From an uncultured Desulfosarcina sp. (GTDB taxonomy: Bacteria; Desulfobacterota; Desulfobacteria; Desulfobacterales; Desulfosarcinaceae), in contig CAXXWQ010000003.1 in assembly GCA_963674945.2 (NCBI GenBank), positions 256,001 through 320,000 of the forward strand: DNA of 64,000 nt, written 5' to 3'. Shown here in pieces: positions 4,715-21,358 of the stretch. Made by a program: the position numbers and the translations under genes. Every line of letters begins with the position of its first letter. Within the stretch, counting starts at the first letter, position 1. Below the pieces are notes generated by a model. It did not search any database, was not told where the DNA came from, and saw nothing but the letters and a program-made list of their open reading frames with translations.

Positions 4715-5251
4715 TTATGCCAAGCCATGCTTTTTGAGATGTCGATCGACCGCTTCAAAGTACTCTTCGTGTCCATTAACATATGGTCCTTGCGACCCGA
4801 TTGCTTCTTGGAGGAAGACACCGTAATCGTAGTCAGCGACAAAAGTTTGCCAGTTTGTAATTTCATAATTTTCATTGGTTTCGACAAAACCAGTAGAGTA
4901 AAAACTCCACTCTTCACCGGTATCCACGTGATGTCCGGCGAAATGTGTTCGCATAACGAAACCATTTTCGGATGGCCAGCAGTTGAATTCTTTTGGTGCC
5001 CAATCGGGAAACTTGACTGAATAAGAAAGTGCTTCCATGGTCGCGTAGGTGGCCACATCTACGACCATTCCTCCTAATTTTACAGTATTTTGGCGTCCTC
5101 CGGTAAAATATGGTGACCAGAATATGGCGTCCTCCGCGAACTTCCATTCCTCATATTTTTCTCCATCTTTTACGACTAGACGCTTGTAAGCATCACGGTA
5201 GGCTTCGGCCATTCGTCGATGTTTGGCGACCCGTTCCTCAACCTTTGACAT
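4715..5251 (-). CDS. Hypothetical protein, possibly NTF2/SnoaL-like fold
   Basis: 178 aa with GGAGG RBS; FAEDAIFWSPY...FPDW...FVMRTHFAG...GFVETNENYEITNW pattern resembles NTF2-like proteins. Confidence 0.65.
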   Translation of the reverse strand: MSKVEERVAKHRRMAEAYRDAYKRLVVKDGEKYEEWKFAEDAIFWSPYFTGGRQNTVKLGGMVVDVATYATMEALSYSVKFPDWAPKEFNCWPSENGFVMRTHFAGHHVDTGEEWSFYSTGFVETNENYEITNWQTFVADYDYGVFLQEAIGSQGPYVNGHEEYFEAVDRHLKKHGLA

Positions 5252-5295
5252 AATTTTGCCTCCTTTGACCTTACTCGCTTAGTATATTATATAAA

Positions 5296-6108
5296 TTAAC
5301 ACTCCGGTAATTCCTGACGTAGATTATTGCCCAATAAGGGTTTCAAATTATCTTTTATAAAAACAGGTTTTCCAGCCTTATCCGCACATTTGACGATCGC
5401 CCGGACCCATTCTACCTTCGGGGGCTTATAAGGTTTAGTCTGACTTCCTATGATGATCCAATCCGCTTTCGGAACAATACTCGGGCCGAACGCCGGAGGC
5501 AGTTCCATCACATCCTCGAGCAGGGGCTCGAAGGAGAGGTATTTCAGTTTGGCCTTCACTCTACCACTGAAATAATACCACCATGCGTGATAAGCGGTCC
5601 GTGCGTCGCAAACAGTAGACCCTATCCAACAATTGTCTGGAAAGGGAGAACATTTTGTTAAATTCCACGGCCGCTTGGTAAGAAAATAGAAACGGTGCTG
5701 AGGATTGGATCTGATTGCTTTAAATATCTCCCTTTGCCAGTCATAAGGAATCCATTCGGCAAACATTTCGCACATGTTTCCTACAAAGATACCTTTTGGC
5801 TTCCTTTGCCGATTACGAATTACACGGCCTCTTCTTTCTCCGATACACAACGATTTTTTCCCCCGCATTTCTTTCAGCCGTTCAGGCCAGAAACGAGGAT
5901 AAAAAGGATCGGCCAAATGCTGTCTGCGATTTGGATCATCATTTGAAGGTAAGTTTTTATTCGCCAAGAATCTCGTTTTCAAACGCCCGTTTGCTATCTT
6001 CCGAGCATAGCAGTACGCGCAACCTACAAGGCAGCCGGTTATTGGATTCCAGCTATACCCCTGGCTACCATCCGGATTTTTTACCCATTCGACTTTGGTC
6101 CTGTTCAT
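5296..6108 (-). CDS. DUF5131 (phage Gp37/Gp68-like) radical-SAM-related protein
   Basis: 270 aa; TKVEW...WNPITGCLVGCAYCYA, IFVGNM, LTKRP, LSFEPLL, DWIIIG. Confidence 0.88.
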   Translation of the reverse strand: MNRTKVEWVKNPDGSQGYSWNPITGCLVGCAYCYARKIANGRLKTRFLANKNLPSNDDPNRRQHLADPFYPRFWPERLKEMRGKKSLCIGERRGRVIRNRQRKPKGIFVGNMCEMFAEWIPYDWQREIFKAIRSNPQHRFYFLTKRPWNLTKCSPFPDNCWIGSTVCDARTAYHAWWYYFSGRVKAKLKYLSFEPLLEDVMELPPAFGPSIVPKADWIIIGSQTKPYKPPKVEWVRAIVKCADKAGKPVFIKDNLKPLLGNNLRQELPEC

Positions 6109-6141
6109 TCCTGTTCACAAGTGAAGGGGATGCTATATAGA

Positions 6142-6188
6142 AAGGCAGGTTTGGTTGAATAGTAAATATATTCAACCAAACCTGCCTT
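6142..6188 (-). terminator. 20-bp perfect inverted repeat closing the corrinoid operon
   Basis: AAGGCAGGTTTGGTTGAATA-gtaaata-TATTCAACCAAACCTGCCTT, just after the stop at 6196. Confidence 0.75.
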
Positions 6189-6195
6189 ACTCATT

Positions 6196-6885
6196 TTATT
6201 TATTTCTTTCCACCCACCGTTCCATCTTGCCAGCCATCAGCGCCTTGACCTTTTCCAGTGCCTCGAAGGCGGTTTCGCCGTAAGTGTCGGCGCCGATCTC
6301 GTCACACCACTCGGGCGTCATTCCCCATCCGCCGGTGATATAGATCACGTCGTCTCTGACGCCGGCTTCGACCATGGCCTTGTGGATGACACCGCAATAC
6401 GGCGTCACCGGACCGATGATGGCCGAGGCGCCTACGATGTCTGGCTTGTACTTCTTGATCGCCGCAACGAAATCGTCGGCCGACTTGTTCTCTCCGATAT
6501 CGATGGACTTGATGCCTGCACCGGAAAAGAAGGCGGAGACGATTCTCTTGCCGACGTTGTGAAGATCGCCTTCTACCGTGCCGATGATCATCACCTTATC
6601 CTCCGGCTTCCGATTCATTATGGAGGCTTCGACATCCGCTGTCGGCAGCAACTTCTCCATGGCGTCGTTCATGATCTGTCCCGAGATCATCAGGTCGCTC
6701 ATGAACCGGTCATTGGCTTCGTACTCATCGCCGATAATGGTCAACCCGGGGCTTAACCCCTTAACAATGACATCCAGGGCAGGAATCTTGGCATCCATGC
6801 ACTCCTGAACCAGCTGGGCGACCAGGTCGTCATCCAGATCGATAATCGCCTCTTTTAGTTTCTCGAGTATTTCTTCATTTGCCAC
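6196..6885 (-). CDS. Corrinoid (cobalamin-binding) methyl-carrier protein, MtaC/MttC-like (module B)
   Basis: B12-binding_2 cap plus GTVEGDLHNVGK (DxHxxG), VGASA, GG motifs. Confidence 0.93.
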   Translation of the reverse strand: MANEEILEKLKEAIIDLDDDLVAQLVQECMDAKIPALDVIVKGLSPGLTIIGDEYEANDRFMSDLMISGQIMNDAMEKLLPTADVEASIMNRKPEDKVMIIGTVEGDLHNVGKRIVSAFFSGAGIKSIDIGENKSADDFVAAIKKYKPDIVGASAIIGPVTPYCGVIHKAMVEAGVRDDVIYITGGWGMTPEWCDEIGADTYGETAFEALEKVKALMAGKMERWVERNK

Positions 6886-6944
6886 TGGGATCCGAATCCT
6901 TTAATCGAAGTCGAAGCACGTCAGTGCTTCCGGCGTTCGGGTTG

Positions 6945-6969
6945 AAGCCGGGTGCAAAACGCCCGGCTT
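6945..6969. terminator. Intra-operon stem-loop
   Basis: AAGCCGGGTG-caaaa-CGCCCGGCTT between the URO-D and corrinoid genes. Confidence 0.45.
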
Positions 6970-7001
6970 GAATAAAACGAATCAAAAATTGAGATTTCGG
7001 G

Positions 7002-8252
7002 TTATTCATACCTTCCGTATTTTTTCTGCGTTTTGATCGCGGCGTCAATGTGCTCCGCCGGCGCCCAATACGGCGGGAAGATATCGATCGTGAATTTGGG
7101 CATGTGCTTGTGCTTGAGGACGATATCCTTCACCTCTTCCTCAATGGCTGAGATTGGGCCGTTTTCCATGATTTCATCATGGCCGGAAAAACTCATGAAA
7201 CATTCATGTTCGTGATGCCAATCCGCCACCGCTTCCAGGTCACATTCACCGCGTCCGCCGGCACCACCATTCCACATTTCTCCTGCAGGCCCAAGTGCGC
7301 CTTGCTCCCAGACAATCGGAAGCGCTTTCATCGTCATGCCTGTGAGGGGATAACCATGGGATAAGTGGATCGGTCTTCCGAGTTTTTCTTTTGCATAATC
7401 ACTCAGCGCTTTGCCGAGTGTTCTATAAGAATCAAGCATCCATTCTTTGCCACCCAACGGGTAGCTGTCCCACATCGCTCACATCCATATCCCGTCTGGT
7501 TCACACTCATCGATCATGGCTTTACCGAATCCGATGAGAAACTCGGTGGCGATCTCATGGCCTTTCTTTATTATCTCCGGTTGCTTTCGCAGGAAATTGG
7601 GAAACTCCATCCAACCCAACATCCCCATCATCATCAAAAGGTCCGGACCTGGGCAGATTGAAGTCCAAAGCGGCATGGGTATCTTGTACTCGGTGAGTAT
7701 TCGTCTGAACTCCCGGTTGGCCCAGATATAACCTGGATACAAGCCATCCTTGCGAGTATCCGGCACGGGCATGCCCTCTAAATCATCGATGGTTTTGATC
7801 GGCATGGGCGGTTCGATAATCGGGTTTCCATAGTCGATCATGATCGACTGACCGCCCCACATATCCTCGCCGTAATTGATGTTATGAAAGTTGCAATAGT
7901 CCAGTCCGAAACGGGCAGCCGTTGCCAGATGGGTCAATATCCACAGCTTCGGATACAAAAGCGTATCCACCGGCTTTATCGCATCGGAAGAGTGATCCAT
8001 GGCATGACTGATGTAGACGGAGGTCGTCGCAAGGTACGTCAACGTGCGATCCTTATCCTCACCATACATCGTCGCTTTCCAGCGCTCGAGAGGGGTCATC
8101 CCTCCCTCATCCTTAATATTGTTGAGAATCTTTTCACAGTAGCGATCTATCAGTACTTTTTCTTCACGGCTCCACTCAAAATCCAGCTTATCGAGATGCG
8201 TGTTGTACCAATAGGGCGCCGGTTTAATCGGTTTTCTTCCTTGAAAAGCCAT
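7002..8252 (-). CDS. URO-D-family (MtaA/CmuA-like) corrinoid methyltransferase with in-frame TGA at 7479-7481; putative selenoprotein, 416 aa (module B)
   Basis: ORFs 7479-8252 and 7002-7475 share a frame. Joined, they align end to end with paralog 12075-13286 (MTPLERW, YGEDMWG, GLYPGY, PAEHIDAAIKTQKKYGRY). A SECIS-like hairpin follows the TGA. Confidence 0.8.
7449..7465 (-). promoter_or_regulatory. Candidate bacterial SECIS element
   Basis: mRNA UGA-GCGAUGUGGGACA-GCUACCC-GUU-GGGUGGC: 7-bp stem, apical loop starting with G, 20 nt between UGA and loop. Confidence 0.65.
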
Positions 8253-8277
8253 AACTCACCGACCTCCTTTTAAATAA

Positions 8278-8619
8278 TTACATCGTTGCAGGCAACACCT
8301 TCATCAAGGCCTCATCGGATTTCCGAGACTTCATTTTACCCTCGGTATACGCTTCCATTGGGGGGACTGTTTTATTATTAATACCTACCCATGTGTCACT
8401 GTCCATTTCAAGGACGCCGTCGGCGGCATCCTCATCGATCTTTTCTTCGCAGTTTTCCACCGTTCCGTCCATGGCCATCTTTAACAGCCAGCCGGTGTTC
8501 AGATCGGAAATGACGAACTGGATAGAGCCACCCCAATCCGCTGAAGAAAATGGGCCTACTTCGTTAATCTTTTCGACCATCGTCTGCATGGCATTTGCCG
8601 CCTCTTCCATCGTTGCCAT
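8278..8619 (-). CDS. SCP2 sterol/lipid-binding domain protein (module B)
   Basis: 113 aa; WGGSIQFVISD...ADGVLEMDSDTWVGI...PMEAYTEGKMK, typical SCP2 pattern. Confidence 0.82.
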   Translation of the reverse strand: MATMEEAANAMQTMVEKINEVGPFSSADWGGSIQFVISDLNTGWLLKMAMDGTVENCEEKIDEDAADGVLEMDSDTWVGINNKTVPPMEAYTEGKMKSRKSDEALMKVLPATM

Positions 8620-8638
8620 TTACTTTCCCCCGTTTCTA

Positions 8639-9841
8639 TTATGCTTTGGTGATCCCGGCCTCCAATGCCAGTTCCAAGATGTCCAGTGTATCTATATCGG
8701 AGCCTGCTGCATCGATACCATCGATGATGTTTCTCTTGCAGGAAGGGCATGCGGATAGGACGACTTCTGCGCCGACTTCTTCGGCCTGGGCCGCCTTGTC
8801 CATTCCAATCTCCACCGCCAAGTCGTAGTTGATACCCTTGACGCCACCACCGCCGCCACAACACCAGGTTTTTTCACGGTTTCTGACGAATTCCACAATC
8901 TCGATTCCTGGGATGGCTTCGAGAATCTTCCTCGGCTCGTCAAAAACCCGCATGTCACGCCCCAGTTCACAAGGATCGTGATAGACCACCTTCTTTTTCA
9001 CCTCCTTGGTAAACTTCACCTTACCTTGCTCGATCTGCTCTGCCAGTATCTGAACGATGTGTTTTGCCTGGATCTTGTAATCGTCGCCCTCCAACTTCAG
9101 CATCTTGGGATAATCCTGAACGAGGATCCGATAGCAACCGGCGCAGGAAGCGATCACCTTCTTGCCCTTCATCAGCTCATAATTATGCCGCATCAAATCC
9201 CTTGCCAAAAACAGGTTTCCCATCATCAGCATGGGATTGCCGCAACAATGCTCTTCCTCTCCCAGGATGTTAAAGGGGATGTCCAGTATGTTGAGGATCT
9301 TTCCCGTTGCCTGAGCGATCTCTATTTCCCGAAAACTCGACAGGCACCCGACGAAATAGGTAGTATCGGCATTGGGATCCAGTTTGATGTCGGCATCCTC
9401 CGCCCACTCGCCTCTCTCCTCGTTGGGATAGCCCATTACATTCTGTGATTTCTCAACGGTATCGCAGAACATGTGGACCTCATCGGGAAGTTTGGCACCG
9501 GAAGAATATAGTTCGGCTCTTATTGCCTTAACGATGTGCGGATGATCGATCAGCGGGCCAAAGGTTTCCATATCCACGGCACCGCAGGTTTCACGACAGT
9601 TTCCACAGAGAAGACACTCGTAGATCGCCTGGACCGGAGCATCGGTGATATCGTATCTACCCTCTAAGACGTTCCTGCCTACCTCTACCCTGCCAATGGG
9701 GAAATTGGTCCAGAATCCCGCCGTATGCTCACCCGCAGGGCACACCCTGAACACCTTCTGTTCCAAACTATACTTTGAACGACATACGCCACATCGGACG
9801 CACCTCGTCACGCCTTTACGATATTTCTCTAACTCACCCAT
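8639..9841 (-). CDS. Fe-S oxidoreductase, GlcF/HdrD-like (2x 4Fe-4S plus 2 CCG domains) (module B)
   Basis: CVRCGVC...CP, CLLCGNCRETC, YFVGC, CCG, SCAGC, YHDPCELGR, CCGGGGG, ACPSC. Confidence 0.92.
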   Translation of the reverse strand: MGELEKYRKGVTRCVRCGVCRSKYSLEQKVFRVCPAGEHTAGFWTNFPIGRVEVGRNVLEGRYDITDAPVQAIYECLLCGNCRETCGAVDMETFGPLIDHPHIVKAIRAELYSSGAKLPDEVHMFCDTVEKSQNVMGYPNEERGEWAEDADIKLDPNADTTYFVGCLSSFREIEIAQATGKILNILDIPFNILGEEEHCCGNPMLMMGNLFLARDLMRHNYELMKGKKVIASCAGCYRILVQDYPKMLKLEGDDYKIQAKHIVQILAEQIEQGKVKFTKEVKKKVVYHDPCELGRDMRVFDEPRKILEAIPGIEIVEFVRNREKTWCCGGGGGVKGINYDLAVEIGMDKAAQAEEVGAEVVLSACPSCKRNIIDGIDAAGSDIDTLDILELALEAGITKA

Positions 9842-9853
9842 TCTGCCGCCTCC

Positions 9854-11308
9854 TTACGCAAAGAATACACCGGGATTCATGATGTTATTGGGGTCCATAG
9901 TTTTCTTCATGGTCTTGACAAAGTGATAGAATTCCGGCGTCCAATACCTTGCCTGGACCCTGGACATGTGACCCTGGGTGGCCTCCATCACATATCCGCG
10001 CTTAGCAGATTCTTCCAGGAAATCCGCCCACATTTCATAAACTTCCCTGTGAAGCTCTTTATCGGTTTCATCCAGAAACGGGATAAAGGTTGTCATCCCA
10101 TAGCCTGGCCCCGATGACAGAAGGCCGGTGATCAACTGCATTTTGTCGTCGATGCCTCTGTCCTTCAGCCGTTTGAAGAAAAACTCGCGGCCCCACTTGT
10201 AGTTATCCAGAATGTCTCTTCGCGATACGATGAGCTCCAATAACGGTACGCTGCCCATCGTGGCCATATTGTTCATGTCATGGGCAAAATCGAGAAAGGT
10301 CTGGGTGAAAGTCACCACACCCGGCGTAGCCTGTGTTCCTCCGTGCCGTGTGTAACATTCGTCGGCAATCTTGTACTTTAAATCGACCTCTTCCTCGCTG
10401 AGGCCGATATTGATGAAAAACAAGATCCACTTTTTTGGCCCCCCGGGATCGATCATATCGATGTACTCCGGACCGAGCAGCATCCCACTGGTGTATGGCT
10501 GTATATACAAATAGGGGTCCACATTCCACAATTCACTATAGGCTGCAAACGCTTGATCCACCGTATCGAAAAAGTAAGCGTTGCCTTTGCGCGCTTTGGG
10601 CAGTGGGAACATGCGATAGGTTGCCTCGACCTTTATTCCGAACATCCCCCCGTCACCGACGAATAGACCGGCCATGTCCGGGCCATGCATTCCCCTGGCC
10701 CAGCTGTTGCCTCGATACTGGCTAAGCGTCCCCTGGCCCGTTCCGGTGTCCACGATTTCCCCATTGGGCAGAACCACCTTTACGCCATTCAGGTAATGAT
10801 AATTCCATCCGATGGAGTAACTGTACCGGCCGAATCCCCCACCCGGTTCCCCGCTGATGTGACCGCCGAGTGTGTTGATATAGTGGGGAACGCCGGCAGT
10901 GTGGATATCATATCCCTTCTCGTTAACTTTACTGGCCAGCTCGCCCAGGGTTATGCCGCACTGAGCGGTTACCGCCGTATTTTCCTCATCGATCTCAAGT
11001 ACTTTGTCCATTCGCCGCATGTCTACGATAATAGCCCTTCCCGGTTGTCCCTTGGGCACACCGGAAATCGAGGCTTTTCCTCCCATGGGAACCAGAGGGG
11101 TGCGCGTCTGGTTTGCCAGCCTGACAATCTCGACAACCTCCTCCGTTGAACCGGGGCGTGCTACGACACCCTGGGCACTTGCCGGTGGAACACAACTTGT
11201 ATCCTTGGTATAGGATAAAAGAACGGAATAATCATCCGAGACATATGTGGAACCAACGATCGACTGCAATTCCTGATATAGCTCGTGATGTGCTCTAGCT
11301 AATACCAT
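9854..11308 (-). CDS. FAD-binding oxidoreductase, GlcD/D-lactate dehydrogenase/ADPS (VAO) family (module B)
   Basis: RPGSTEEV, PMGGKAS, VDMRRMDKV, TLGGHI, GDGGMFGI, MDPNNIMNPG. Confidence 0.92.
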   Translation of the reverse strand: MVLARAHHELYQELQSIVGSTYVSDDYSVLLSYTKDTSCVPPASAQGVVARPGSTEEVVEIVRLANQTRTPLVPMGGKASISGVPKGQPGRAIIVDMRRMDKVLEIDEENTAVTAQCGITLGELASKVNEKGYDIHTAGVPHYINTLGGHISGEPGGGFGRYSYSIGWNYHYLNGVKVVLPNGEIVDTGTGQGTLSQYRGNSWARGMHGPDMAGLFVGDGGMFGIKVEATYRMFPLPKARKGNAYFFDTVDQAFAAYSELWNVDPYLYIQPYTSGMLLGPEYIDMIDPGGPKKWILFFINIGLSEEEVDLKYKIADECYTRHGGTQATPGVVTFTQTFLDFAHDMNNMATMGSVPLLELIVSRRDILDNYKWGREFFFKRLKDRGIDDKMQLITGLLSSGPGYGMTTFIPFLDETDKELHREVYEMWADFLEESAKRGYVMEATQGHMSRVQARYWTPEFYHFVKTMKKTMDPNNIMNPGVFFA

Positions 11309-11371
11309 TGATCTTCCTCCGTTTGAAAATTACCGATTCTCCTTTAGCGCGTGTAAGCCATTTACGTAAGC

Positions 11372-12034
11372 TTACACACCCCTTTGGGAACGGATTGTCT
11401 TGACCTTGCCTATGGCATCGACGGCGTTTTCGCCGAAGGCGTCGGCCCCAACTTCGTCGCACCACTCCTGCGTCATTCCCCAACCACCGATTAGATAGAT
11501 CACATCATCCCTTATCCCGGCTTCCACCAAGGCTTGATTGATCACTTTGCAGTATGGCTTCAGCGGTCCGAGGATCGCCGAGGCGCCTACGACCAGTGCA
11601 TTATTCTCTTTTACCGCCTTTACGAATGCTTCGGCCGGTTGGTTCTCTCCAATATCAATTACCTTGTATCCTGCGCCGAGAAACAAAGAGGAAACGATTC
11701 GCTTGCCGATGTTGTGATCGTCACCTTCCACGGTACCAATCACCAGCGTATCCCCCGAGTATTTATCATCTCCAGCGCTGGCTTCTATGGCGGGACGCAG
11801 TATCGGCATGGCATCGCCCATCAGTTCTCCTGCGATCACCATGTCGGCCATGAACCTCTCACCGGTCTCGAAACCTTCGCCAATGATGGTCAAACCGGGG
11901 CTCAATCCGTCCATGATCATATCCATAGGCGCCAGATTCTCCGATAGACCATCTTTGAGCAGTGTATGAATGTTCTCCTCATCGAGGTCGATCATCGCCT
12001 GTTTCAGGCCGGCTAAAATTTCTTCCTTTGGCAT
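11372..12034 (-). CDS. Corrinoid methyl-carrier protein (module A)
   Basis: Start reassigned to ATG 12034 (MPKEEIL) after AAGGAG; GTVEGDDHNIGK, VGASA; paralog of 6196-6885. Confidence 0.93.
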   Translation of the reverse strand: MPKEEILAGLKQAMIDLDEENIHTLLKDGLSENLAPMDMIMDGLSPGLTIIGEGFETGERFMADMVIAGELMGDAMPILRPAIEASAGDDKYSGDTLVIGTVEGDDHNIGKRIVSSLFLGAGYKVIDIGENQPAEAFVKAVKENNALVVGASAILGPLKPYCKVINQALVEAGIRDDVIYLIGGWGMTQEWCDEVGADAFGENAVDAIGKVKTIRSQRGV

Positions 12035-12074
12035 CCTTCGGTACTCCTTCTTACCGTTTTGGTCTGGAAGTCGA

Positions 12075-13286
12075 TTAGTATTTACCGTATTTCTTTGCGG
12101 CGGCAATGGCAGCATCGACGTGCGCCTGCGGGGTATGGTAGTCAATCGCCCCGATCCCTATGGAGAACTTGGGGTGATCCTTTCCATATTCACACCGCAT
12201 TTTAACATCCTCTTCGATATCTGCGGTCGGTCCATCCAGTACGGTCTTGTCCGAAGAGAGGCAGATACATTGAATGTCGTACTCTTTAGAGCTATCGACT
12301 GTCTTTATATGATCCAATCCGCCACCGGTAACCCATCCTTTCAGGCCTTCCGGTCCCATTATCCCTCTTTCAACCACGTGTGGGAGCCACACCGCATCGG
12401 CGGCCACACCAGCCGTGTAATAGACGGGGATGTGGGCACCCACGGTTTTGCAGACCTTTTCATGGTGGTCCAGTGTCCACTCATTTCCCTTTACCGGCAA
12501 CCAGCCGAGCCCGGCAGAAATCCAGAGCGCGTCGGCTCCCATCTCATGGGCGGCAAGACATGAATTAATGTAAAGTTCGTCCGCCATCTCCACGCACTTC
12601 TTAAGCAATTCAGGGTTCTTACGTGTAAGCACCATCAATCCGCTGATACCCGTCATGCCCAGCATCACGATGGCAACCGGTTCGCAAAGAACACCGACCA
12701 TCATCGGCAGAGACTCGGACAAATTAAACTCGTCAAGGAATTTCCTGCACTCTCTTACGGCCCACAGGTATCCGGGGTAGAGGCCATGCTTCCTATGGTC
12801 GGGAATTTCCAGCCCCTCCAGATCCTCCATGGTCTTTATCGCAGGGTCTCCCACCACGACCGGGTTGCCATAATCGATCAACTTAGAATTTGCTCCCCAC
12901 AGATCTTCTGTATAACCGGTTGTATAGGGGAAAATCCAATCCGCTTTGAATCTGGCCGTAAAGGCAAAGTGCTGCTTTACCAGCAGTTTTGGATTTCTGT
13001 ACCCGTCTATCGGCTTTAGCGCATCTGCATTGGAATCCAGTGTTCGAATGGCGTAGACATTAAAAGGCGCCGTTGCAACGAAACAACGGTCTTTTTCCTT
13101 GCCTTCCTGTGTAGCAATCCACCGCTCACGCGGAGTCATCTCTTCTTCTTCGATATTTTTATGTATCTTCTCGCAATAGCGCTCGATTTCCAGTTTCTCT
13201 TCGGCAGACCACTCGAAATGGAGTTCATCCAAAGGCGTGTCATACCAATCGGGCGCATTTTGCATTCTGATCCGTTCTTTAGCCAA
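12075..13286 (-). CDS. URO-D-family corrinoid methyltransferase (module A)
   Basis: TTG start after AGGAGG; MTPRERW, IKTMEDLEGLEIPD, GADALWISAG, TPQAHVDAAIAAAKKYGKY. Confidence 0.88.
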   Translation of the reverse strand: MAKERIRMQNAPDWYDTPLDELHFEWSAEEKLEIERYCEKIHKNIEEEEMTPRERWIATQEGKEKDRCFVATAPFNVYAIRTLDSNADALKPIDGYRNPKLLVKQHFAFTARFKADWIFPYTTGYTEDLWGANSKLIDYGNPVVVGDPAIKTMEDLEGLEIPDHRKHGLYPGYLWAVRECRKFLDEFNLSESLPMMVGVLCEPVAIVMLGMTGISGLMVLTRKNPELLKKCVEMADELYINSCLAAHEMGADALWISAGLGWLPVKGNEWTLDHHEKVCKTVGAHIPVYYTAGVAADAVWLPHVVERGIMGPEGLKGWVTGGGLDHIKTVDSSKEYDIQCICLSSDKTVLDGPTADIEEDVKMRCEYGKDHPKFSIGIGAIDYHTPQAHVDAAIAAAKKYGKY

Positions 13287-13348
13287 GGCCTTCACCTCCT
13301 TGCTCTTTTGGGCATGGGTTTGGCAATTCGGTTACCCTTAACAGACGA

Positions 13349-13795
13349 TTACACCTCTTCTTTGGCGATCTCCGTGATGTCTTTCTTCATCCACTCGGCG
13401 GCTTCGGTAGAGTCTCCCTTCACCAGCCGGGTCATGTCGTCATCCAGGTCGGACGGCTCGATAATCACCAGCCAACCATCGCCATAAGGATCTTCGTTGA
13501 CCAGCGTCGGATTGTCCAACACCGCCTGGTTGGCCTCCACGATCGTTCCGCTTACGGGTGACAACAATGGTCCGACCCACTTGGCCGTCTCCAGAGTTCC
13601 GAATCGTTTTCCCTGCTTCACTTTCTTGCCGGCTGGGAAAAGCCTCATGAACTTGAGTTCTCCGGCCTGCTTCTGGGCAAAGTCGTCTACGCCGACTCTG
13701 ATTTTGCCGTCTTCGTTTTTCGCCCAGCTGTGCGCCGTGTCCTGCGGCCAGTAGTGAAGATCCTTGTCTACCCAATACTTACCAATCTTCGGCAT
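13349..13795 (-). CDS. GcvH-like lipoate-binding protein (module A)
   Basis: HSWA, RVGVDDFAQKQAG, LETAKWVGPLLSPVSG (lipoyl-Lys), VNEDPYGDGWL. Confidence 0.92.
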   Translation of the reverse strand: MPKIGKYWVDKDLHYWPQDTAHSWAKNEDGKIRVGVDDFAQKQAGELKFMRLFPAGKKVKQGKRFGTLETAKWVGPLLSPVSGTIVEANQAVLDNPTLVNEDPYGDGWLVIIEPSDLDDDMTRLVKGDSTEAAEWMKKDITEIAKEEV

Positions 13796-13807
13796 ATTTT
13801 ATTCTCC

Positions 13808-15004
13808 TTATGCTTTTGCGATCCCAGCTTCGATACACAGTTCAAGGACGTCCAACATGTCCAGATCGGAACCGGCGGCCTTGATGCCGTCATTGATGTT
13901 GGTCTTGCAGGATGGACAGGCGGATACGATTACCGTGGCGCCGACTTCATTGGCCTGTGCCACCTTGTCCGTAGCGATCTCCACGGAAAGGTCGAAGTCG
14001 AATCCTTTGACACCGCCACCGCCGCCACAGCACCAGGTCTGCTCTTTGTTACTGAAAAACTCCACCACCTCGAGTCCGGGAATCGCGGCAAGGATCTTCC
14101 TCGGCTCATCATACGTCTGCGTGTCTCGACCCAGTTCGCAAGGATCGTGATAGACCACCTTCTTTTTGACCTCTTTGGTGAACTTCACCTTGCCCTGCTC
14201 GATCTGCTCGGCCAGTACCTGAACGATGTGTTTGGGTGTAATCTTGTAATCGTCGCCTTCCAGTTTCAGAATCTTGGGATAATCCTGAAGGAGAACGCGA
14301 TAGCAGCCGGCACAGGAGGCGATCACCGTCTTGTCCTTCATTCTTTCATAGTTGTGACGCATCAGATCGCGGGCCAGCATCAGGTTGCCCATCATCAGCA
14401 TGGGATTGCCGCAGCAACTCTCTTCCTCTCCCAGTATGTTAAAGGGGATGTCCAGAATGTTGAGAACCTTACCCACCGCCTGGGCGATCTCCACTTCCCG
14501 AAAGCTGGAAAGGCATCCGACAAAATAGGTGGTGTCGGCATTGGGATCCAGTTTGATGCCCGCATCTTCCACCCAGTCGGCGCGCTCTTCGTTGGGAAAT
14601 CCCATGACGTTCTGGTTTTTTTCAATGGCCGTACAGAACATGTCGACGTGCTCCGGTAACTCGACCCCGGAGTTGAACAGGTCCGCTCTCAGGGCCTTGG
14701 TGATATGGGGCTGAATGATCCTGGGCTTGAATGTCTCCAGGTCCAGGCACCCGCAGGCCTGCCGGCAGTTGCCACAGAGAAGACAACTGTATGCATATTC
14801 GGCCAGCTTCGGGGTTATTTCAACGGTTCCCTCGAGAACGCCCCTGGCCATCTGATTCCTTCCACGGGATGAATAAACCTCGAAACCTTCGGTATGTTCC
14901 CGAATGGGACAGATCTTCCTGTCGCCCCAGGGGCTGTATTTATGAACGCAGACTCCGCATCGAGTGCACCCGTAGATACCTTTTACGTGTTTTTCTAATT
15001 CCAT
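13808..15004 (-). CDS. Fe-S oxidoreductase, GlcF/HdrD-like (module A)
   Basis: CTRCGVC...CP, CLLCGNCRQAC, two CCG domains; paralog of 8639-9841. Confidence 0.92.
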   Translation of the reverse strand: MELEKHVKGIYGCTRCGVCVHKYSPWGDRKICPIREHTEGFEVYSSRGRNQMARGVLEGTVEITPKLAEYAYSCLLCGNCRQACGCLDLETFKPRIIQPHITKALRADLFNSGVELPEHVDMFCTAIEKNQNVMGFPNEERADWVEDAGIKLDPNADTTYFVGCLSSFREVEIAQAVGKVLNILDIPFNILGEEESCCGNPMLMMGNLMLARDLMRHNYERMKDKTVIASCAGCYRVLLQDYPKILKLEGDDYKITPKHIVQVLAEQIEQGKVKFTKEVKKKVVYHDPCELGRDTQTYDEPRKILAAIPGLEVVEFFSNKEQTWCCGGGGGVKGFDFDLSVEIATDKVAQANEVGATVIVSACPSCKTNINDGIKAAGSDLDMLDVLELCIEAGIAKA

Positions 15005-15037
15005 TTATTTTTACCTCTCGCTTACGATAGGACGAAT

Positions 15038-16480
15038 TTATAGATCCCAAATTCCTGGATTCATGATGTTATTCGGGTCGAATGCCTTTTTAAGCTTTCT
15101 CATGAAATCGAAACGCTCTTTGGGCCAGAATTTGGCCATCATTCGCGTCCCCCAGCCCTGATGACAATCCGGGTACCATCCGTTGGAACATGCAAATTCG
15201 GTAGCATCCAAGAAGAGTTGCTGCATTACTTGTCGCGCGTGCGGGTCCTCTCCCTTGGTCCATACGGGCATGGAAACGATCCAGGCGGCCGAACCGGTGG
15301 GAATCATGGTCTCGTTGGAATTGAACGCGACACCTTCCTTGTTGAGCCTGTCGTAGATAAAGTCTCTCATCCCTTGATGGCACGCCGCCACCTGAGAACG
15401 GGCGATATAATACTCAAAAAACGCCCATGTACCCAGGCTGCCGAATTCACCCATCTCCCGGTGTCGCTGCCCATCGAGGGATTGTTTCTTCCAGTCTTCC
15501 GCCGCCGCATGCGTGGCTTCTTCAATTGAATGTTTCGACGCCAGGTCTTTAATGATCTCCAATTTGGCGTCCGTCTCTTTTTGCGTGGTTCCTTTGGCGA
15601 TAATGATGCACATGTGTTTTTTCATGCCCATCATTTCCTGGAATATCTTCACCGGCACGATGATCGCCATGCAGTAATAAGGAAGCGGTTCGACAACACT
15701 CAGCTCCCGGCAGTAATCGTATGCCTGATCCCAACTGTCGCAGTCGAAAGCCAGCGGTACTCTTATGGGAGTATCCTTATACATGCGATACGTGGCTTCC
15801 ACCTTGATCCCGAATGTGCCGGCATCGCCGATAAACATCCCGGTAAGATCCGGGTTTCCCGGATAACGATCGTAGATCATATCGCAGTGAACGTTGCTCC
15901 CCGCACCGGCGCCGGTTTGTACGATCGATCCATCGGGAAGAACCACCTTCACGCCGGGAATATGCGTGGCGTTAAATCCTGCGACAAACAATTCCATTCC
16001 GCCGCCACCGCCGGCAAAACCGGCGATTTGCCCGCCAAGCGTGTCCGGATAAAAGGGTTGAAACGCAGTATGGACATCCCATCCCCGATCCCAAATATAG
16101 GTGGAGAATTCGGATGTGGTCATGCCGGCTTCGGCGGTGACCGTCAGATTGTACTCGTCGAAGTTCAGCATCTTGTTCATGCGCGTCATGTCGACCACGA
16201 TGCCTTTTCCATGCAGCCCCTTGGGAGTGCCGTAGAAAGATGCCCTTCCCCCGCTGGGCACGATGGGAATCTTGGTAGCGTTGGCCAGTTTTACGATATC
16301 CACGACCTCGTCCGTGCATGAGGGACGTACCACGATCCCCTGCTTGTTCGGTGGTAGCGGACTGGTATCCCTGCTATAGGTCTCCAACACCACATCTTCG
16401 TCAGTGACATATTTAGGGCCGACGATTCCTCCCAGATCATAGTACAATGGGTGATGTGCTTTCCGAACGACGACAGCCAT
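15038..16480 (-). CDS. FAD-binding oxidoreductase, GlcD/VAO family (module A)
   Basis: Start reassigned to ATG 16480 (MAVVVRK) after AGGAGG; PSGGRAS, TLGGQI, GDAGTFGI, FDPNNIMNPG. Confidence 0.92.
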   Translation of the reverse strand: MAVVVRKAHHPLYYDLGGIVGPKYVTDEDVVLETYSRDTSPLPPNKQGIVVRPSCTDEVVDIVKLANATKIPIVPSGGRASFYGTPKGLHGKGIVVDMTRMNKMLNFDEYNLTVTAEAGMTTSEFSTYIWDRGWDVHTAFQPFYPDTLGGQIAGFAGGGGGMELFVAGFNATHIPGVKVVLPDGSIVQTGAGAGSNVHCDMIYDRYPGNPDLTGMFIGDAGTFGIKVEATYRMYKDTPIRVPLAFDCDSWDQAYDYCRELSVVEPLPYYCMAIIVPVKIFQEMMGMKKHMCIIIAKGTTQKETDAKLEIIKDLASKHSIEEATHAAAEDWKKQSLDGQRHREMGEFGSLGTWAFFEYYIARSQVAACHQGMRDFIYDRLNKEGVAFNSNETMIPTGSAAWIVSMPVWTKGEDPHARQVMQQLFLDATEFACSNGWYPDCHQGWGTRMMAKFWPKERFDFMRKLKKAFDPNNIMNPGIWDL

Positions 16481-16911
16481 TCTAAACCTCCTTGTGCAAA
16501 AGTTACTTTTTTGAAAGCGCTGATTGGAACGATAAATGAAATTCAGTTTGCTGATTATTTGTCCTACGCCAACATTCACTGTATCTAAGGGTTACACGAG
16601 GTTCACCGGAAGCTTACCGATGGCATTTGATTTCAACTCCATAGTATTGGAAACCGAATGGGTGAATCATCAGAAAATCTTTTCTCGGCAAAAAGTGGTC
16701 GGCGACCTTTCTCAAAGGTCGCAACAATCGAAAAGGCATCATTTTCTGCTTGATTGCGCAACACCACAGTCGTGCGAAACATTGCCCCTTTCCGGTTTGC
16801 CTTTATCCCCCATGGTTCTGAGTAGATTCAATCCAAGGGTGGCGGGCAGAAGTCAGCTCAATTTTCGCCAATTCGTTTTGTAAATAAAAACGATTCATTC
16901 TCAAAGCCAAC

Positions 16912-16939
16912 ACTATACAATCGTATATGGCCATGTCAA
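16912..16939 (-). promoter_or_regulatory. Sigma70-type promoter for the corrinoid operon
   Basis: TTGACA-N16-TATAGT on the minus strand. Confidence 0.55.
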
Positions 16940-17285
16940 GTTATTATGTCAATCTTTTTCTTATTTTTTTTGGCATTTTTCATTTTTAACAAATTTTCAA
17001 TCTATTATTGACAATTTTATATTTTTATTATTGTCATATTGTAATCTTCTACTAACCAATTTATCGTTAATAGCAATTGACACACCATATTTATTGCCAT
17101 TTTTAAATTTTTTCACTATTTTTGATGTTTTTTTACATGTTTATTCGAATTTATTTTGTCATTTTTAATTAGTTAGATGAGCTTTATTGAATAAAAGATG
17201 GCAGTTATGGTATAGGAATTTTTTACATTTCACGACACACGACAATTGATTCAAACTGTATTATCACGGAGGTTTATAAAATATA

Positions 17286-18218
17286 GTGCAACTCGATAAA
17301 GTTGATCTCATGATTATGGAAGAATTGAAGGAGGATGTAAGACAGCCCGTTCACGCACTGGCAAAAAAGCTGGGGATGAAACGAACAACCGTTACGTATC
17401 GGTTGAACAGGCTTAGATCCGAAGGTATTCTGAGAATCGCTTGTGTCGGTGACCCTGAACTTCTAGGATATCAATTTCTGCTTTTAATCGGGATCAACGT
17501 TACCCCTGGCAAGGTTGACAATGTGATCAATGAATTGGTCTGCCTGCCGGCAGTTGTCGTCGTAACCCTTACCGCTGGCAGGTACAACATTTTGGCGTGG
17601 GCTCTTTTGCGCGATCGTCCATCTTTTGCGAACTTGGTATCGGAGCATCTGACGAAGATACCTCATGTTCTGTCTCTCGATCTCATGCACTCTTTTCAAT
17701 GGATTAGAGATGATTTGAATTATTTCAAATCTCAAGTCGGCGATGTTCGCAAACCTCCGGAATATAGTCCCAGCGACACAGACTTGGCCATCGTTCGGGC
17801 CATGGAGATTGATCCCCGGCAAACTGTCGCAGCATTGGCAAAAACCGTTGGCTGCAGCAGATCCGTTGCAAAGAGAAGATTGGACAGCCTCGTGTCCGAT
17901 GGTATCATCAGGTTTGTCAGTCTTGTTGATCCAAAAGGATTGAAATACGAAATATGGGTAGTTATTTTGGTTAAATCGCAACCTGATAAACAGTATGCTG
18001 TGGCGAAAGAGCTGTCAATGCAAAGTACTTCCACTCATGTCAGCCTGATCACAGGTCAATGGCATATATTCGTAGCAGCGCGGTTTAAAAAAAATGAAGA
18101 AATGTACAATTTTATGTCGAATACACTGTCTTCAATTCCCGGCATTCTGGAGTTCGAGGTTATTCACCTATTAAAAATTCCGAAATACTCATTTAGTAGC
18201 TTTCTCGATTCGAATTAA
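17286..18218 (+). CDS. Tandem (double-domain) Lrp/AsnC transcriptional regulator
   Basis: Two HTH+RAM repeats (LDKVDLMIMEELKEDVRQ..., SDTDLAIVRAMEIDPRQ...); divergent from the operon. Confidence 0.9.
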   Translation: MQLDKVDLMIMEELKEDVRQPVHALAKKLGMKRTTVTYRLNRLRSEGILRIACVGDPELLGYQFLLLIGINVTPGKVDNVINELVCLPAVVVVTLTAGRYNILAWALLRDRPSFANLVSEHLTKIPHVLSLDLMHSFQWIRDDLNYFKSQVGDVRKPPEYSPSDTDLAIVRAMEIDPRQTVAALAKTVGCSRSVAKRRLDSLVSDGIIRFVSLVDPKGLKYEIWVVILVKSQPDKQYAVAKELSMQSTSTHVSLITGQWHIFVAARFKKNEEMYNFMSNTLSSIPGILEFEVIHLLKIPKYSFSSFLDSN

Positions 18219-18232
18219 CCGAGATACAAATA

Positions 18233-19102
18233 TTACTTTTGCTCAGCCATCTTGTGTAGCCTCTGATAAGCGATTTGTCCACCGTCAATGGTTACATCGA
18301 TTCCTGATAAAAAGGAAGCTTTATCGCTCAGCAAAAATTCAATAACATTAGCCATTTCCATGGGAGTCCCCATCCTTTTGAGAGGCGTATATGTATTCAC
18401 CATATCATCCATTCTTCCTCCGGTTTTGATAGACCTCTCCAATTCGGCACGGCTGCCTTCTGTGTCAGCGATTCCAGGCGATATGCAGTTCACTCTGATC
18501 TTATTTTCTTCCCCGAATTGTACTGCATACTTCCGAGTCATCAGGTGGATACCTCTTTTGGATATCGGGTATGCCAAGTTGCAAGCCATTTCCTCACCCA
18601 TTGACAAGATGATGGGCTTGAGTTTTTCTACAACATCAGGGTCGGTATCTGTTGCGTATAATATATCATCGATTTTCTCGAGCATCTCCCTTTTTATCAT
18701 GTATGGTGAGGAAGATCCGAAGAGCACCATGGATGAACCTGCTTCCATGACCGTAGCAAATGCTTGCACGAGGCTGTTCACGCCTACCAGACTGACGTCC
18801 ATAATCAACTTCCAGCGCCCGCAGGCCGGTGTCATGCCGGTTACCGCAACAAGCCCGGTAATTGTGCCGGCAGCAACAGCTGTCTTCACCAGATTGTGGA
18901 TGTCTTCTTTCCGCAAGACGTCACAAACCTGAGCAATAACATCAATGTTCTTTTCATTCATATAAGCGATGCCGTCATCGACCTCTTTTTGGTTTGCTCC
19001 GGTCATAACTACTTTGTAACGCTGTGACAACAGTTCTGAAACTGCAATTCCGATTCCACCGACTTTGGCACCGCCGGCGATAACAACCACATTATTATCC
19101 AT
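18233..19102 (-). CDS. SDR oxidoreductase (3alpha-HSD/carbonyl reductase-like)
   Basis: GGAKVGGIG, YPISK, RVNCISPG, SFLSGIDVTIDGG; long insertion between catalytic Ser and YxxxK. Confidence 0.85.
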   Translation of the reverse strand: MDNNVVVIAGGAKVGGIGIAVSELLSQRYKVVMTGANQKEVDDGIAYMNEKNIDVIAQVCDVLRKEDIHNLVKTAVAAGTITGLVAVTGMTPACGRWKLIMDVSLVGVNSLVQAFATVMEAGSSMVLFGSSSPYMIKREMLEKIDDILYATDTDPDVVEKLKPIILSMGEEMACNLAYPISKRGIHLMTRKYAVQFGEENKIRVNCISPGIADTEGSRAELERSIKTGGRMDDMVNTYTPLKRMGTPMEMANVIEFLLSDKASFLSGIDVTIDGGQIAYQRLHKMAEQK

Positions 19103-19143
19103 GTTTTACCTCATTCAATCGTTTTACGCCGTATTACCGGTCC

Positions 19144-19950
19144 TTACAGTAGAGTGCGGCCACCATCAACCGGGAAAAACGTGCCGGTCATGTAATCGGA
19201 AGCCCTGCTGACCAAAAAGAGCACTACCGTTGCGATTTCGTCCGGCTCGGCAAAGCGGAACCAGGGTACCTCCAGGGTCCAGCAATTCATGACCGGGTAC
19301 TCAAACTCCTTGTAGACATTCTGCATTTCTTCGATCCCCGCCATTACTCCCGGGGTGATGGAAGCCCCTGCGGCGATGGCGTTGACCTGTATATTGTAAG
19401 GTGCCAGTTCAAGCGCAAGGGCTTGCGTGAGTGCAGCGATCCCCCCTTTGGAGGCATCATAGTGAGCACAGAATCCATGTGGCCGCATGCCACCAACCGA
19501 TGATATGTTGACGATCTTACCGCCATTTCCTCCTTTTTTCATAACCTCGCAGGCAGCTTGTGAAAAGAAAAACATCGATTTGAGGTTGGTATCGATGATC
19601 TTGTCCCACTGATCTTCGGTGATTTTCGACATTTGGTTGTAAAGGCGAATACCTGCAACGTTGACCAGTATTTCGATGCTGCCAAAAGCCTCCATTGTGG
19701 CTGCGGCTACTTTTTCTGCGTTGGCTGTTGTTGCTACATCCGCCTGAATGGCTTGCGCTTTTCCTCCGGCAGCCTTGATTTCATTCACAACCTGTTCTGC
19801 TGATCCCAAACTTCTATTGGCGATCATAACGCCAGCACCGGCTTCCCCCAGTCTCAATGCGATGGCCTTTCCATAACCCGATCCTCCCCCTGTCACGATG
19901 GCGCCTTTTCCGGTGAGGTCAAATAATTCTTGAATCGATTTCATACTCAA
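19144..19950 (-). CDS. SDR oxidoreductase
   Basis: TGGGSGYG, NVAG, NISS, YDASK, VDGG. Confidence 0.92.
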   Translation of the reverse strand: MSMKSIQELFDLTGKGAIVTGGGSGYGKAIALRLGEAGAGVMIANRSLGSAEQVVNEIKAAGGKAQAIQADVATTANAEKVAAATMEAFGSIEILVNVAGIRLYNQMSKITEDQWDKIIDTNLKSMFFFSQAACEVMKKGGNGGKIVNISSVGGMRPHGFCAHYDASKGGIAALTQALALELAPYNIQVNAIAAGASITPGVMAGIEEMQNVYKEFEYPVMNCWTLEVPWFRFAEPDEIATVVLFLVSRASDYMTGTFFPVDGGRTLL

Positions 19951-21285: not shown

Positions 21286-21358
21286 ACAAAATCCTCCTTG
21301 AAATGATCAACAGCCGGGCATTTGCCATTTTTTTCGCAAATACCCGGCTACGATCCGT

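Follow-up and report, generated by a model that had tools for sequence, protein, structure and literature searches.

Organization of the locus

The window analysed here is a stretch of 64,000 nucleotides from the genome of an uncultured Desulfosarcina sp. (contig CAXXWQ010000003.1, positions 256,001–320,000), and it carries a predicted corrinoid-dependent methyl-transfer system encoded by ten co-oriented genes on the minus strand (6196–16480). These genes make up two five-gene modules that share the order flavoprotein (FAD1, FAD2), CCG-domain iron-sulfur protein (CCG1, CCG2), small protein (GcvH in module 1, termed GcvH1, and an SCP2-like protein in module 2), UroD-family protein (UROD1, UROD2) and corrinoid protein (CP1, CP2). 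Intergenic gaps within the array measure 12–116 nt, and GGAG-type ribosome-binding sites precede most of the ten genes. A perfect 20-bp hairpin with a loop of 7 (6142–6188), terminator-like in form, lies downstream of CP2 and closes the array. At the opposite end, a divergent gene (17286–18218, plus strand) encodes a fused double Lrp/AsnC regulator of 310 aa, in which Pfam recognizes HTH_24, HTH_AsnC-type and AsnC_trans_reg in two stretches each; fused Lrp-like regulators also precede two other loci of the system in this genome. A first-pass annotation, made from the sequence alone, had described ten closely spaced genes in this same order between a divergent Lrp gene and a 20-bp hairpin, and all of these features are present.

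That annotation also regarded the modules as two specialized variants, which their deep divergence bears out. Identity between the modules is 36% for FAD, 71% for CCG, 39% for UROD and 53% for CP (tblastn), and a phylogeny of 121 full-length relatives places UROD1 and UROD2 in separate well-supported clades, UROD1 within a 14-leaf clade with support of 1.0. Judging from these sequences, the modules are old paralogues, with no recent duplication. Composition gave no sign of recent transfer: module GC content (51.9% versus 51.2%) is ordinary for the genome, as is tetranucleotide usage, with 51% of random chunks equally distant. Contigs from the read-archive run with the best-matching DNA were identical to the window, TGA region of UROD2 included, and a mangrove metagenome run contained pieces 90–95% alike across several module genes.

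UroD-type proteins

UROD1 (12075–13295, minus strand) is a predicted substrate:corrinoid methyltransferase, an assignment drawn from Pfam, homologues and the tree. It matches the Pfam URO-D family (PF01208) with an E-value of 8.8e-10 and 38.6 bits against a cut-off of 23.9. UROD2 (7002–8252, minus strand) is interrupted by a single in-frame TGA at codon 258 (7476–7478), and the halves on either side of it had no Pfam match. Read through the TGA, UROD2 gave a predicted model (pLDDT 94.4) with a UroD barrel, which a structure comparison placed equally distant from UroD and MtaA structures (TM 0.63–0.78, 14–19% identity). Sequence and model together assign both proteins to the UroD superfamily.

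Closer classification set them apart from the known members. A phmmer search of PDB with UROD1 alone returned no match (best E 0.12), and with a profile of the family the best match was MtaA (4ay7) at E 1e-6. The NCBIfam model mtaA_cmuA scored 31.3 bits with UROD1 against a cut-off of 235.4 and did not match UROD2. With MtaA, MtbA and MtsA the proteins share the UroD barrel (PDB 4ay7; TM 0.63–0.77) and the apparent partnership with a corrinoid protein; they differ in their low identity (17–19%) and NCBIfam scores (22–31 bits versus cut-offs of 235–400), and unlike MtaA they have an extra N-terminal segment of ∼50 residues. The only conserved His or Cys positions in the family are C41 and a column occupied by Cys or selenocysteine (Sec). 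By curated score, and by the H-x-C...C motif that we take to be the zinc site of MtaA, neither protein appears to be an MtaA/MtbA-type methylcobamide:thiol methyltransferase.

The clade to which they belong is small, rare and uncharacterized. Among 1.84 billion cluster representatives, 44 matched at E≤1e-30, 117 at ≤1e-10 and 377 at ≤1e-3. Named matches came mostly from Chloroflexota metagenome-assembled genomes (MAGs) and in part from Desulfobacterium-like MAGs. A more distant tier of UroD relatives, proteins of ∼420 residues, likewise carried no names in the databases searched, and the ESM Atlas offered generic names only. This genome holds 15 UROD copies, while none of 60 relatives (30 from the same genus, 6 from the family, 24 from the order) had a homologue at E≤1e-30. 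Several copies lie in an island on contig C4, where a UROD–CP–UROD(TGA) triad is tandemly duplicated (C4:686995–693816); the island holds large recent duplications, including C4:659234–665408 and 695761–701888. A UROD remnant consisting of the C-terminal 67 residues (37% identical) was seen at C3:547357–547701, following a FAD1–CCG1-type pair (66% and 92% identical) that has a fused Lrp regulator upstream.

Predicted selenocysteine in UROD2

The TGA of UROD2 very probably encodes selenocysteine. Five of the 15 UROD copies in the genome have a single TGA, always at one shared column. In an alignment of 133 rows (13 from this genome, 120 from databases), that column contained Cys in 112, Ser in 6, Ala in 1 and TGA in 4 (all own rows), and 10 database proteins ended exactly there; the rows are not all independent, because 5 of the database rows are this genome's own proteins. 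In UROD2, a SECIS-like hairpin (selenocysteine insertion sequence; 7446–7462, minus strand) with the apical sequence CCGUUGG begins 16 nt past the U of the UGA. Hairpins 16–17 nt past that U, with the same apical sequence and with stems that differ by compensatory changes, occur in five of the six genes that carry the TGA (3 of 4 distinct copies from this genome and both genes of one Chloroflexota MAG). The genome encodes the decoding machinery as well, with two matches to SelB (374.7 and 306.9 bits, cut-off 242.25) and two to tRNA-Sec (75.4 and 51.3 bits, cut-off 47).

On this sequence evidence, UROD2 shows each of the features expected of a bacterial selenoprotein: a UGA at a Cys column, a SECIS-like hairpin and Sec machinery in the host. 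In the UROD2 model, Sec258 closes a barrel strand (E254–258), and UroD-fold enzymes bind substrate on the barrel side where such strands end. A term search of the selenoprotein literature, including a 2026 review and selenoproteome papers but with supplementary tables outside its scope, found no description of a UroD-type selenoprotein.

Corrinoid proteins and companion genes elsewhere in the genome

CP1 (11372–12034, minus strand; its open frame extends to 12145) and CP2 (6196–6885, minus strand; Pfam, NCBIfam, tblastn) both contain the Pfam domains B12-binding and B12-binding_2, at 5e-16 each in CP1, and the DxHxxG motif, as DDHNIG in CP1 and DLHNVG in CP2. In NCBIfam, CP1 matched pyl_corrinoid (151.6 bits) and the MtbC and MtgC types. 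These sequences indicate corrinoid proteins of the methyltransferase kind (MtaC/MtbC/MtgC); because every NCBIfam equivalog remained below its cut-off, they carry no substrate-type assignment. The genome holds five further copies of CP2, 88–94% identical to it, while the UROD partners of these corrinoid proteins are only 50–56% identical (tblastn). Such near-identity of the carrier beside diverged UROD proteins fits one carrier serving many substrate-specific first methyltransferases.

The remaining parts expected of a corrinoid methyl-transfer system are encoded elsewhere in the genome, together with lipoate genes, which lay beyond the view of the first-pass annotation. Three MtrH homologues each adjoin a second type of GcvH (GcvH2), often with an SCP2 gene adjacent as well. 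The copy that was scanned matches PF02007 at 7e-71, and its best NCBIfam match is MtgA (methyl-Co(III):tetrahydrofolate methyltransferase; 386.7 bits, below cut-off); by tblastn, the remaining two show 98.7% identity to that copy. A RACE/AcsV-like activase is present in two identical copies. Dihydrolipoyl dehydrogenase (Lpd; 575 bits, cut-off 408.8), LipA (367 bits, cut-off 310) and an LplA/B ligase are encoded, as is a second lipoate-assembly set consisting of LipS1, LipS2-like, sLpl(AB)-like ligase and LipT-like reductase proteins. Many of these genes stand together on contig C4 in a minus-strand run of UROD-SCP2-GcvH2-MtrH-RACE-Lpd-LplAB-LipA. The C4 island further contains genes for FadL/TodX channels, MarR regulators, DUF2284 and OsmC-related (seleno)proteins. 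A DsrA match was also found in the genome.

Flavoproteins, CCG proteins and small carriers

FAD1 (15038–16480, minus strand; 480 aa) starts with an ATG preceded by an AGGAGG site, its open frame extending to 16579, and FAD2 occupies 9854–11308 (minus strand; Pfam, tblastn, and PDB matches to the FAD domain only). Both match FAD_binding_4 (4.9e-26 and 1e-26, respectively), and FAD1 also matches FAD-oxidase_C (6e-8). The first-pass annotation had likened such pairs to the GlcD/GlcF type, which oxidizes 2-hydroxy acids; a GlcD identity is not favoured by these data. NCBIfam glcD, with a cut-off of 567.9 bits, gave 95.5 bits for FAD1 and 99.2 for FAD2. The D-lactate dehydrogenase (D-LDH) motif TGEHGIG aligns to DCHQGWG in FAD1 and EATQGHM in FAD2, so that the E-H motif is not kept, and the C-terminal half of the flavoprotein alignment has no invariant His; in D-LDH, the His/Glu motifs of the cap domain bind metal. 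From sequence, then, FAD1 and FAD2 do not appear to be of the GlcD/D-LDH type. An AlphaFold2 model of FAD1 (pLDDT 92.1) was equally close in Foldseek (TM 0.75–0.83) to D-LDH, VAO/PCMH and alkyl-DHAP synthase (ADPS) structures, and we place both proteins in the VAO/PCMH superfamily, with no defined subfamily, on sequence and model grounds. The fold of FAD1 does not separate D-LDH-like, VAO-like and ADPS-like readings.

The partners of these flavoproteins, CCG1 (13808–15004, minus strand) and CCG2 (8639–9841, minus strand), match Pfam CCG in two stretches each (3e-35 and 1e-33) and Fer4_8. TfrB was their best NCBIfam match (170 bits, cut-off 385; no equivalog cut-off was reached), and HdrB was the best solved structure for CCG in PDB (4e-12). 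Sixteen cysteines are invariant in the CCG alignment (C13, C16, C19, C32, C77, C80, C84, C164, C197, C198, C231, C289, C325, C326, C363 and C366). The sequences thereby indicate proteins of the HdrD/TfrB/GlcF type, with a dicluster (2×[4Fe-4S]) ferredoxin part and two intact CCG domains.

GcvH1 (13349–13795, minus strand), an H-protein-like lipoyl carrier, matches Pfam GCV_H at 2.6e-34 and reaches 115.8 bits in NCBIfam against a cut-off of 117. The lipoyl Lys within the ETAK motif is invariant in all eight aligned GcvH sequences and kept in both GcvH types. Pfam scans of the window genes found no GcvT or GcvP families, and a separate GcvH copy is located on contig C2 near a LipA match. In module 2 the corresponding position is held by the SCP2-like protein (8278–8619, minus strand; 113 aa), whose match to PF02036 is marginal (E 1.7e-4, 22.3 bits, cut-off 21.3). 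Its homologue at locus L001 scored 23.6 bits and an ORF at L012 scored 16.8 bits; paralogues elsewhere in the genome adjoin GcvH2 and MtrH.

Conservation of the gene association

Neighbourhoods were surveyed by tblastn at 24 UROD loci in seven other assemblies, many on short contigs. A CP gene stood beside UROD at 14 loci, FAD and/or CCG at 5, GcvH at 4 and SCP2 at 1. Chloroflexota locus L001 reads CP-SCP2-GcvH-MtrH-UROD, and L002, also from Chloroflexota, reads UROD-CP...UROD-MtrH-GcvH-RACE-rSAM-FAD'-CCG', where rSAM denotes a radical SAM protein. L021, from a Desulfonema MAG, has UROD-CP-GcvH-MtrH-rSAM-Lpd-RACE, and L013 has MtrH-LplAB-rSAM-UROD-Lpd-RACE-DUF2284. The order FAD-CCG-(weak SCP2)-UROD-UROD-CP-UROD was found in a Dehalococcoidia MAG (L012), and MtrH-RACE-Lpd-LplAB-LipA...FAD1-CCG1 in Chloroflexota (L121), at 65–74% identity to this genome. 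L122 and L123 carry FAD-CCG-GcvH-FAD'-CCG'...sLplAB-LipT.

The link between the methyltransferase/corrinoid pair and the flavoprotein/CCG pair, which the first-pass annotation had put forward, extends beyond the window. In this genome, every one of the six FAD1/FAD2-type FAD/CCG pairs has UROD/CP genes or the UROD remnant next to it, and loci L005, L012 and L121 show the UROD system linked to FAD-CCG in Chloroflexota and Dehalococcoidia MAGs. The FAD1 family comprises ∼90 proteins, mostly from Chloroflexota, and from exactly equal contig sizes we take eight of its matches to lie on the same contigs as UROD matches. The five-gene order itself, presented in that annotation as fixed, proved not to be general: the module 2 order FAD-CCG-SCP2-like-UROD-..-CP recurred once elsewhere (L012), and for module 1 FAD-CCG-GcvH elsewhere precedes a second FAD-CCG pair and not UROD-CP. 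On the available sequences the association is conserved across phyla, whereas the exact gene order is not.

A metagenome scan with the flavoprotein alignment yielded 80 loci, mostly generic FAD/CCG pairs at 23–34% identity. The only informative one was L107 (804–13350 of a metagenome contig), which reads CP-MttB-x-FAD-CCG-x-CP-FAD-CCG-ZnADH-MttB; the presence of FAD/CCG pairs with MttB-type corrinoid methyltransferases hints that such pairing is more general. Two further neighbourhoods were recorded. In an Actinomycetota MAG (L015, 174–5249 and 10001–11245), 5 kb separate a UROD homologue from genes for a FAD_binding_2 flavoprotein, a corrinoid protein and two non-Pyl members of the MtmB family, to which the steroid methyltransferases EmtA/AbeA are reported to belong. 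In a Desulfonema limicola MAG (L010, 5913–9346), a glycyl-radical enzyme and its activase stand directly upstream of a UROD homologue.

Comparison with known systems

Among the closest known systems is the Mto system, an O-demethylase system composed of MtoA (MtrH-like), MtoB (first methyltransferase), MtoC (corrinoid protein) and MtoD (RACE) (Kurth et al. 2021, PMC8630106). As far as the available portion of that paper extends, Mto/Mtv and the present system have the same four kinds of part (here across this genome and related loci), several paralogous first methyltransferases, of ∼46–48 kDa, and an MtrH-like enzyme that serves as folate/pterin methyltransferase. CP is found in both modules, and MtrH and RACE stand beside UROD/CP copies at other loci. 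Unlike the present loci, the Mto clusters in the same portion of PMC8630106 lack GcvH, Lpd, lipoate-assembly genes, CCG proteins and VAO-type flavoproteins; glycine cleavage and uroporphyrinogen are not mentioned there, and the string ‘lipo’ occurs only as a vitamin of the medium. The Cys/Sec column, a feature of the UROD clade, is a further apparent difference from Mto/Mtv. NCBIfam contained no model matching MtoB, MtvB, OdmB or VdmB.

For the redox half, two comparisons apply. CCG1 and CCG2 resemble TfrAB and HdrD/HdrB in the dicluster ferredoxin part and two CCG domains, TfrB being the best curated match; they differ in falling below every curated cut-off, in having a VAO/PCMH-type partner instead of fumarate reductase or HdrA, and in the proposed thiol partner, which would be protein-bound lipoate and not CoM/CoB. 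The second comparison is the sHdr-LbpA sulfur oxidation system, with its sLpl(AB)-LipS1-LipS2-LipT lipoate assembly for LbpA maturation (Tanabe et al. 2023, PMC10332631). Within the part of PMC10332631 at hand, the likeness lies in CCG-type proteins beside a GcvH-like lipoate-binding protein and in a nearby LipS1/LipS2-like/Lpl(AB)-like/LipT-like set. Pfam scans of the loci found no HdrA, DsrE or TusA families and only single HdrD-like CCG proteins. The present system thus differs from sHdr-LbpA in having no HdrA/B1/B2/C1/C2-like set, in its ties to corrinoid methyltransferases and in its sulfate-reducing host.

Type 1 mlp clusters (Kountz and Balskus preprint, PMC10418091) are similar, in the accessible part of the preprint, in combining several UroD-family homologues with a corrinoid protein and RACE, in lacking a folate methyltransferase within the cluster and in a link to selenium biology. 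According to that same part, the Mlps share ∼30% identity with MtaA-type enzymes and are not described as selenoproteins, and FAD, CCG, GcvH and ‘glycine cleavage’ are not mentioned for these clusters. Identity with type 1 mlp was therefore rejected, that being a different, MtaA-like set on the available text (PMC10418091). The steroid C-19 methyltransferase (Emt/Abe) was likewise rejected, EmtA being reported as MtmB-like and not UroD-like. In the full-text literature searched, supplementary tables lying outside its scope, a corrinoid methyltransferase combined with GcvH, lipoamide dehydrogenase or Hdr-like proteins is not described. By its sequences, the methyl-transfer half appears to be a rare variant of a known design, one member of which is a predicted selenoprotein. 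What is unexplained, and of most interest, is the lipoyl/CCG/flavoprotein coupling.

Proposed mechanism and alternatives

From the genes and the families to which they belong, the Sec signature, the folds and the neighbourhoods that recur, we propose that the array encodes Mto-like demethylase modules, each of them coupled to a TfrB/HdrD-like flavoprotein–CCG oxidoreductase that would use lipoyl-GcvH; our confidence in this reading, which draws on sequence and analogy, is evenly divided. The catalytic steps, substrate class and protein contacts that follow are our proposal. UROD would act as a substrate-specific first methyltransferase, moving the methyl group of a substrate, possibly a hydrophobic donor, to the corrinoid protein's Co(I). 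From there the MtrH/MtgA-like enzyme, whose genes lie at three other loci, would pass it to tetrahydrofolate, after which the sulfate reducer could oxidize it, and oxidized cobalt would be repaired by the RACE/AcsV-like activase encoded elsewhere. The presumed active-site Cys of the family is predicted to be Sec in UROD2 and is Ser in UROD1. The flavoprotein–CCG pair may act like TfrAB or sHdr-LbpA, carrying electrons between the methyl donor (or its demethylated product) and the lipoyl-GcvH disulfide. In this scheme the CCG subunit would handle the dithiol/disulfide of lipoyl-GcvH, the flavoprotein the organic compound, and Lpd would couple that carrier to NAD(H), with electrons running in one direction or the other.

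Several points weigh against the proposal. MtrH, RACE and Lpd are all absent from the window modules, and use of their distant copies is therefore inferred. Ser occupies the Cys/Sec column in UROD1 and its three closest relatives, and the Cys/Sec residue is therefore not essential for every member. The MtaA segment with the zinc motif H-x-C aligns to unconserved positions of the UROD family, and the label ‘O-demethylase-like’ reflects only an analogy between gene sets. No FAD/CCG gene was seen in the available DNA of 19 of the 24 surveyed loci, where many contigs are short, and since FAD1 is equally near D-LDH, VAO and ADPS its fold points to no substrate class. Ordinary methyl transfer needs no redox step. 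For most oxidations of alcohols or hydroxy acids, lipoate (about -290 mV) accepts electrons poorly, which makes the role given to the redox trio a guess.

It is unlikely, in our estimation, that the FAD-CCG-GcvH trio is an independent catabolic dehydrogenase (e.g. for a hydroxy acid or alcohol, with a thiol/disulfide acceptor) that acts later in a pathway or is merely co-located, with no mechanistic tie to methyl transfer. Such a role would explain why FAD-CCG-GcvH-FAD'-CCG' units and lipoate-assembly genes stand alone, with no adjacent UROD/CP, in L122, L123 and contig C4 of this genome, where two copies of the FAD'-CCG' pair are 100% identical; FAD/CCG pairs are also common as GlcD/GlcF-like dehydrogenases, and FAD' is a better glcD match (158.7 bits) than FAD1 or FAD2. 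It sits poorly with the linkage of all six FAD1/FAD2-type pairs to UROD/CP genes or the remnant, with the eight contigs taken to be shared and with the three linked loci in another phylum, and poorly too with the glcD scores and lost E-H motif of FAD1 and FAD2.

We consider it quite improbable that lipoyl-GcvH and Lpd, joined in the window by CCG and flavoprotein, form an electron supply or buffer that keeps the corrinoid as Co(I), that is, a donor branch for RACE. RACE is directly beside Lpd or GcvH in all five loci that hold it (C4 of this genome, L021, L013, L002 and L121), and to our knowledge it is generally not established what reduces RACE-type activases in the cell. Adjacency inside one operon is, however, expected in any case; the window modules have the redox trio and no RACE, an organic substrate is suggested by the substrate-type flavoprotein of each module, with its divergent cap domain, and a two-electron dithiol is ill suited, at about -290 mV, as a Co(II)/Co(I) donor.

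Transfer in the methylating direction, from methyl-folate through MtrH and the corrinoid protein to UROD and on to a thiol, selenol, metalloid or phenol, with lipoate and Sec as chalcogen ligands, is highly improbable in our view. Corrinoid methyl transfers are reversible, for example in EmtAB and AbeABC, as far as the consulted portion of PMC11912376 describes them. A Sec/Cys residue with a dithiol would suit soft metalloids, and DUF2284 and OsmC-related (seleno)protein genes are present in the C4 island; on the other side, the 15 paralogues, accompanied by MarR/Lrp regulators and FadL/TodX channels, suggest a catabolic system, and the host is a sulfate reducer able to oxidize methyl groups, as judged from the DsrA match, the remainder of that capacity being inferred.

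Least probable of all is a lipoyl arm that carries the methyl or C1 unit itself, UROD methylating the dihydrolipoyl-GcvH thiol as MtaA does coenzyme M and flavoprotein–CCG oxidizing the S-methyl group independently of folate: UroD-family MtaA-type enzymes do methylate thiols, in glycine cleavage the lipoate of GcvH does bear a C1 unit, the GcvH1 gene stands between those of CCG1 and UROD1 (the one UROD of the array without the Cys) and the window has no MtrH, but an MtrH/MtgA-like folate methyltransferase stands beside every GcvH2 copy and suggests folate as acceptor, a zinc site for thiol activation is missing, module 2 has SCP2 in place of GcvH, and we know of no precedent for an S-methyl-lipoyl route.

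The coupled methyl-transfer and redox system envisaged by the first-pass annotation therefore stands in its linkage of the two pairs, which reaches beyond the window, and in its diverged variants, and falls short in the general fixed order, the GlcD comparison and the lipophilic substrate as written, for which the grounds come down to the marginal SCP2 match and FadL/TodX genes in another island. A bolder reading, unlikely as a whole, can also be formulated from the sequences. A Sec/Cys-dependent UroD-type clade might work with protein-bound lipoate, a chalcogen (Sec/Cys in cis, or dihydrolipoyl-GcvH in trans where the residue is Ser) helping to break an unreactive methyl–heteroatom bond and the HdrD-like CCG protein and VAO-type flavoprotein resetting the carrier. 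Lipoate would thereby gain a part in methyl transfer, and there would be a new selenoprotein family that gene transfer between Chloroflexota and sulfate reducers has spread in sediments.

Flanking sequences and neighbouring genes

A promoter-like site, TTGACA-16-TATAGT (16912–16939, minus strand), matches the consensus at 11 of 12 positions, a consensus match only, and lies ∼430 nt before FAD1; the intervening leader had no Rfam match. Between the Lrp gene and this site is a ∼390-nt AT-rich intergenic stretch (16900–17290) with many TGTCAAT/ATTGACA-like repeats. Rfam detected no known RNA families or riboswitches in 5000–18500, and only chance miRNA-like matches, far below gathering score, on the 6142–6188 hairpin. 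A second, shorter G+C-rich hairpin, AAGCCGGG...CCCGGCTT (6950–6995, minus strand), was read by eye in the 116-nt UROD2–CP2 gap and has no T run.

Identical DDE_Tnp_1_4 transposase genes (280–1719 and 52741–54180, both minus strand; 0 differences in 1440 nt) bracket ∼51 kb including the modules, a composite-transposon-like layout. Beside the first lies a truncated DUF1329 gene (1753–2469), followed by a full DUF1329 gene (2867–4240); a DUF1302/DUF1329 pair also flanks the UROD locus of the Desulfonema MAG L010. Just downstream of CP2 (5296–6108, minus strand) is a gene like DUF5131/‘radical SAM mobile pair protein A’ (103.9 bits, cut-off 355), copies of which, 72–74% identical, occur at two other corrinoid-protein loci (C4:673423–674235 and C1:353168–353971). 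Beyond the Lrp gene, 18233–32801 encodes on one strand several short-chain dehydrogenases/reductases, a zinc alcohol dehydrogenase, a C_GCAxxG_C_C protein, VOC/glyoxalase proteins, a radical SAM/SPASM protein and an Amidohydro_2 protein (a family of aromatic-acid decarboxylases), with a second fused Lrp regulator at 31815–32801.

Implications

In anoxic sediments, methylated compounds such as methoxylated aromatics, methyl sulfides and methylated metalloids serve as major sources of carbon and electrons, and the enzymes that sulfate reducers and Chloroflexota use on them are largely unknown. The locus and its sister loci define a testable system, with a rare, many-paralogue methyltransferase clade and a predicted new selenoprotein family. 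In these loci, genes for corrinoid methyl transfer are repeatedly linked to those for Hdr-like CCG proteins and for a dedicated lipoyl carrier, which has assembly genes and a dihydrolipoyl dehydrogenase of its own. The proposed coupling, if real, would supply a physiological thiol/disulfide partner for the HdrD-like subunit of a flavoprotein dehydrogenase, and would give lipoate a function beyond the 2-oxoacid, glycine-cleavage and sHdr systems.

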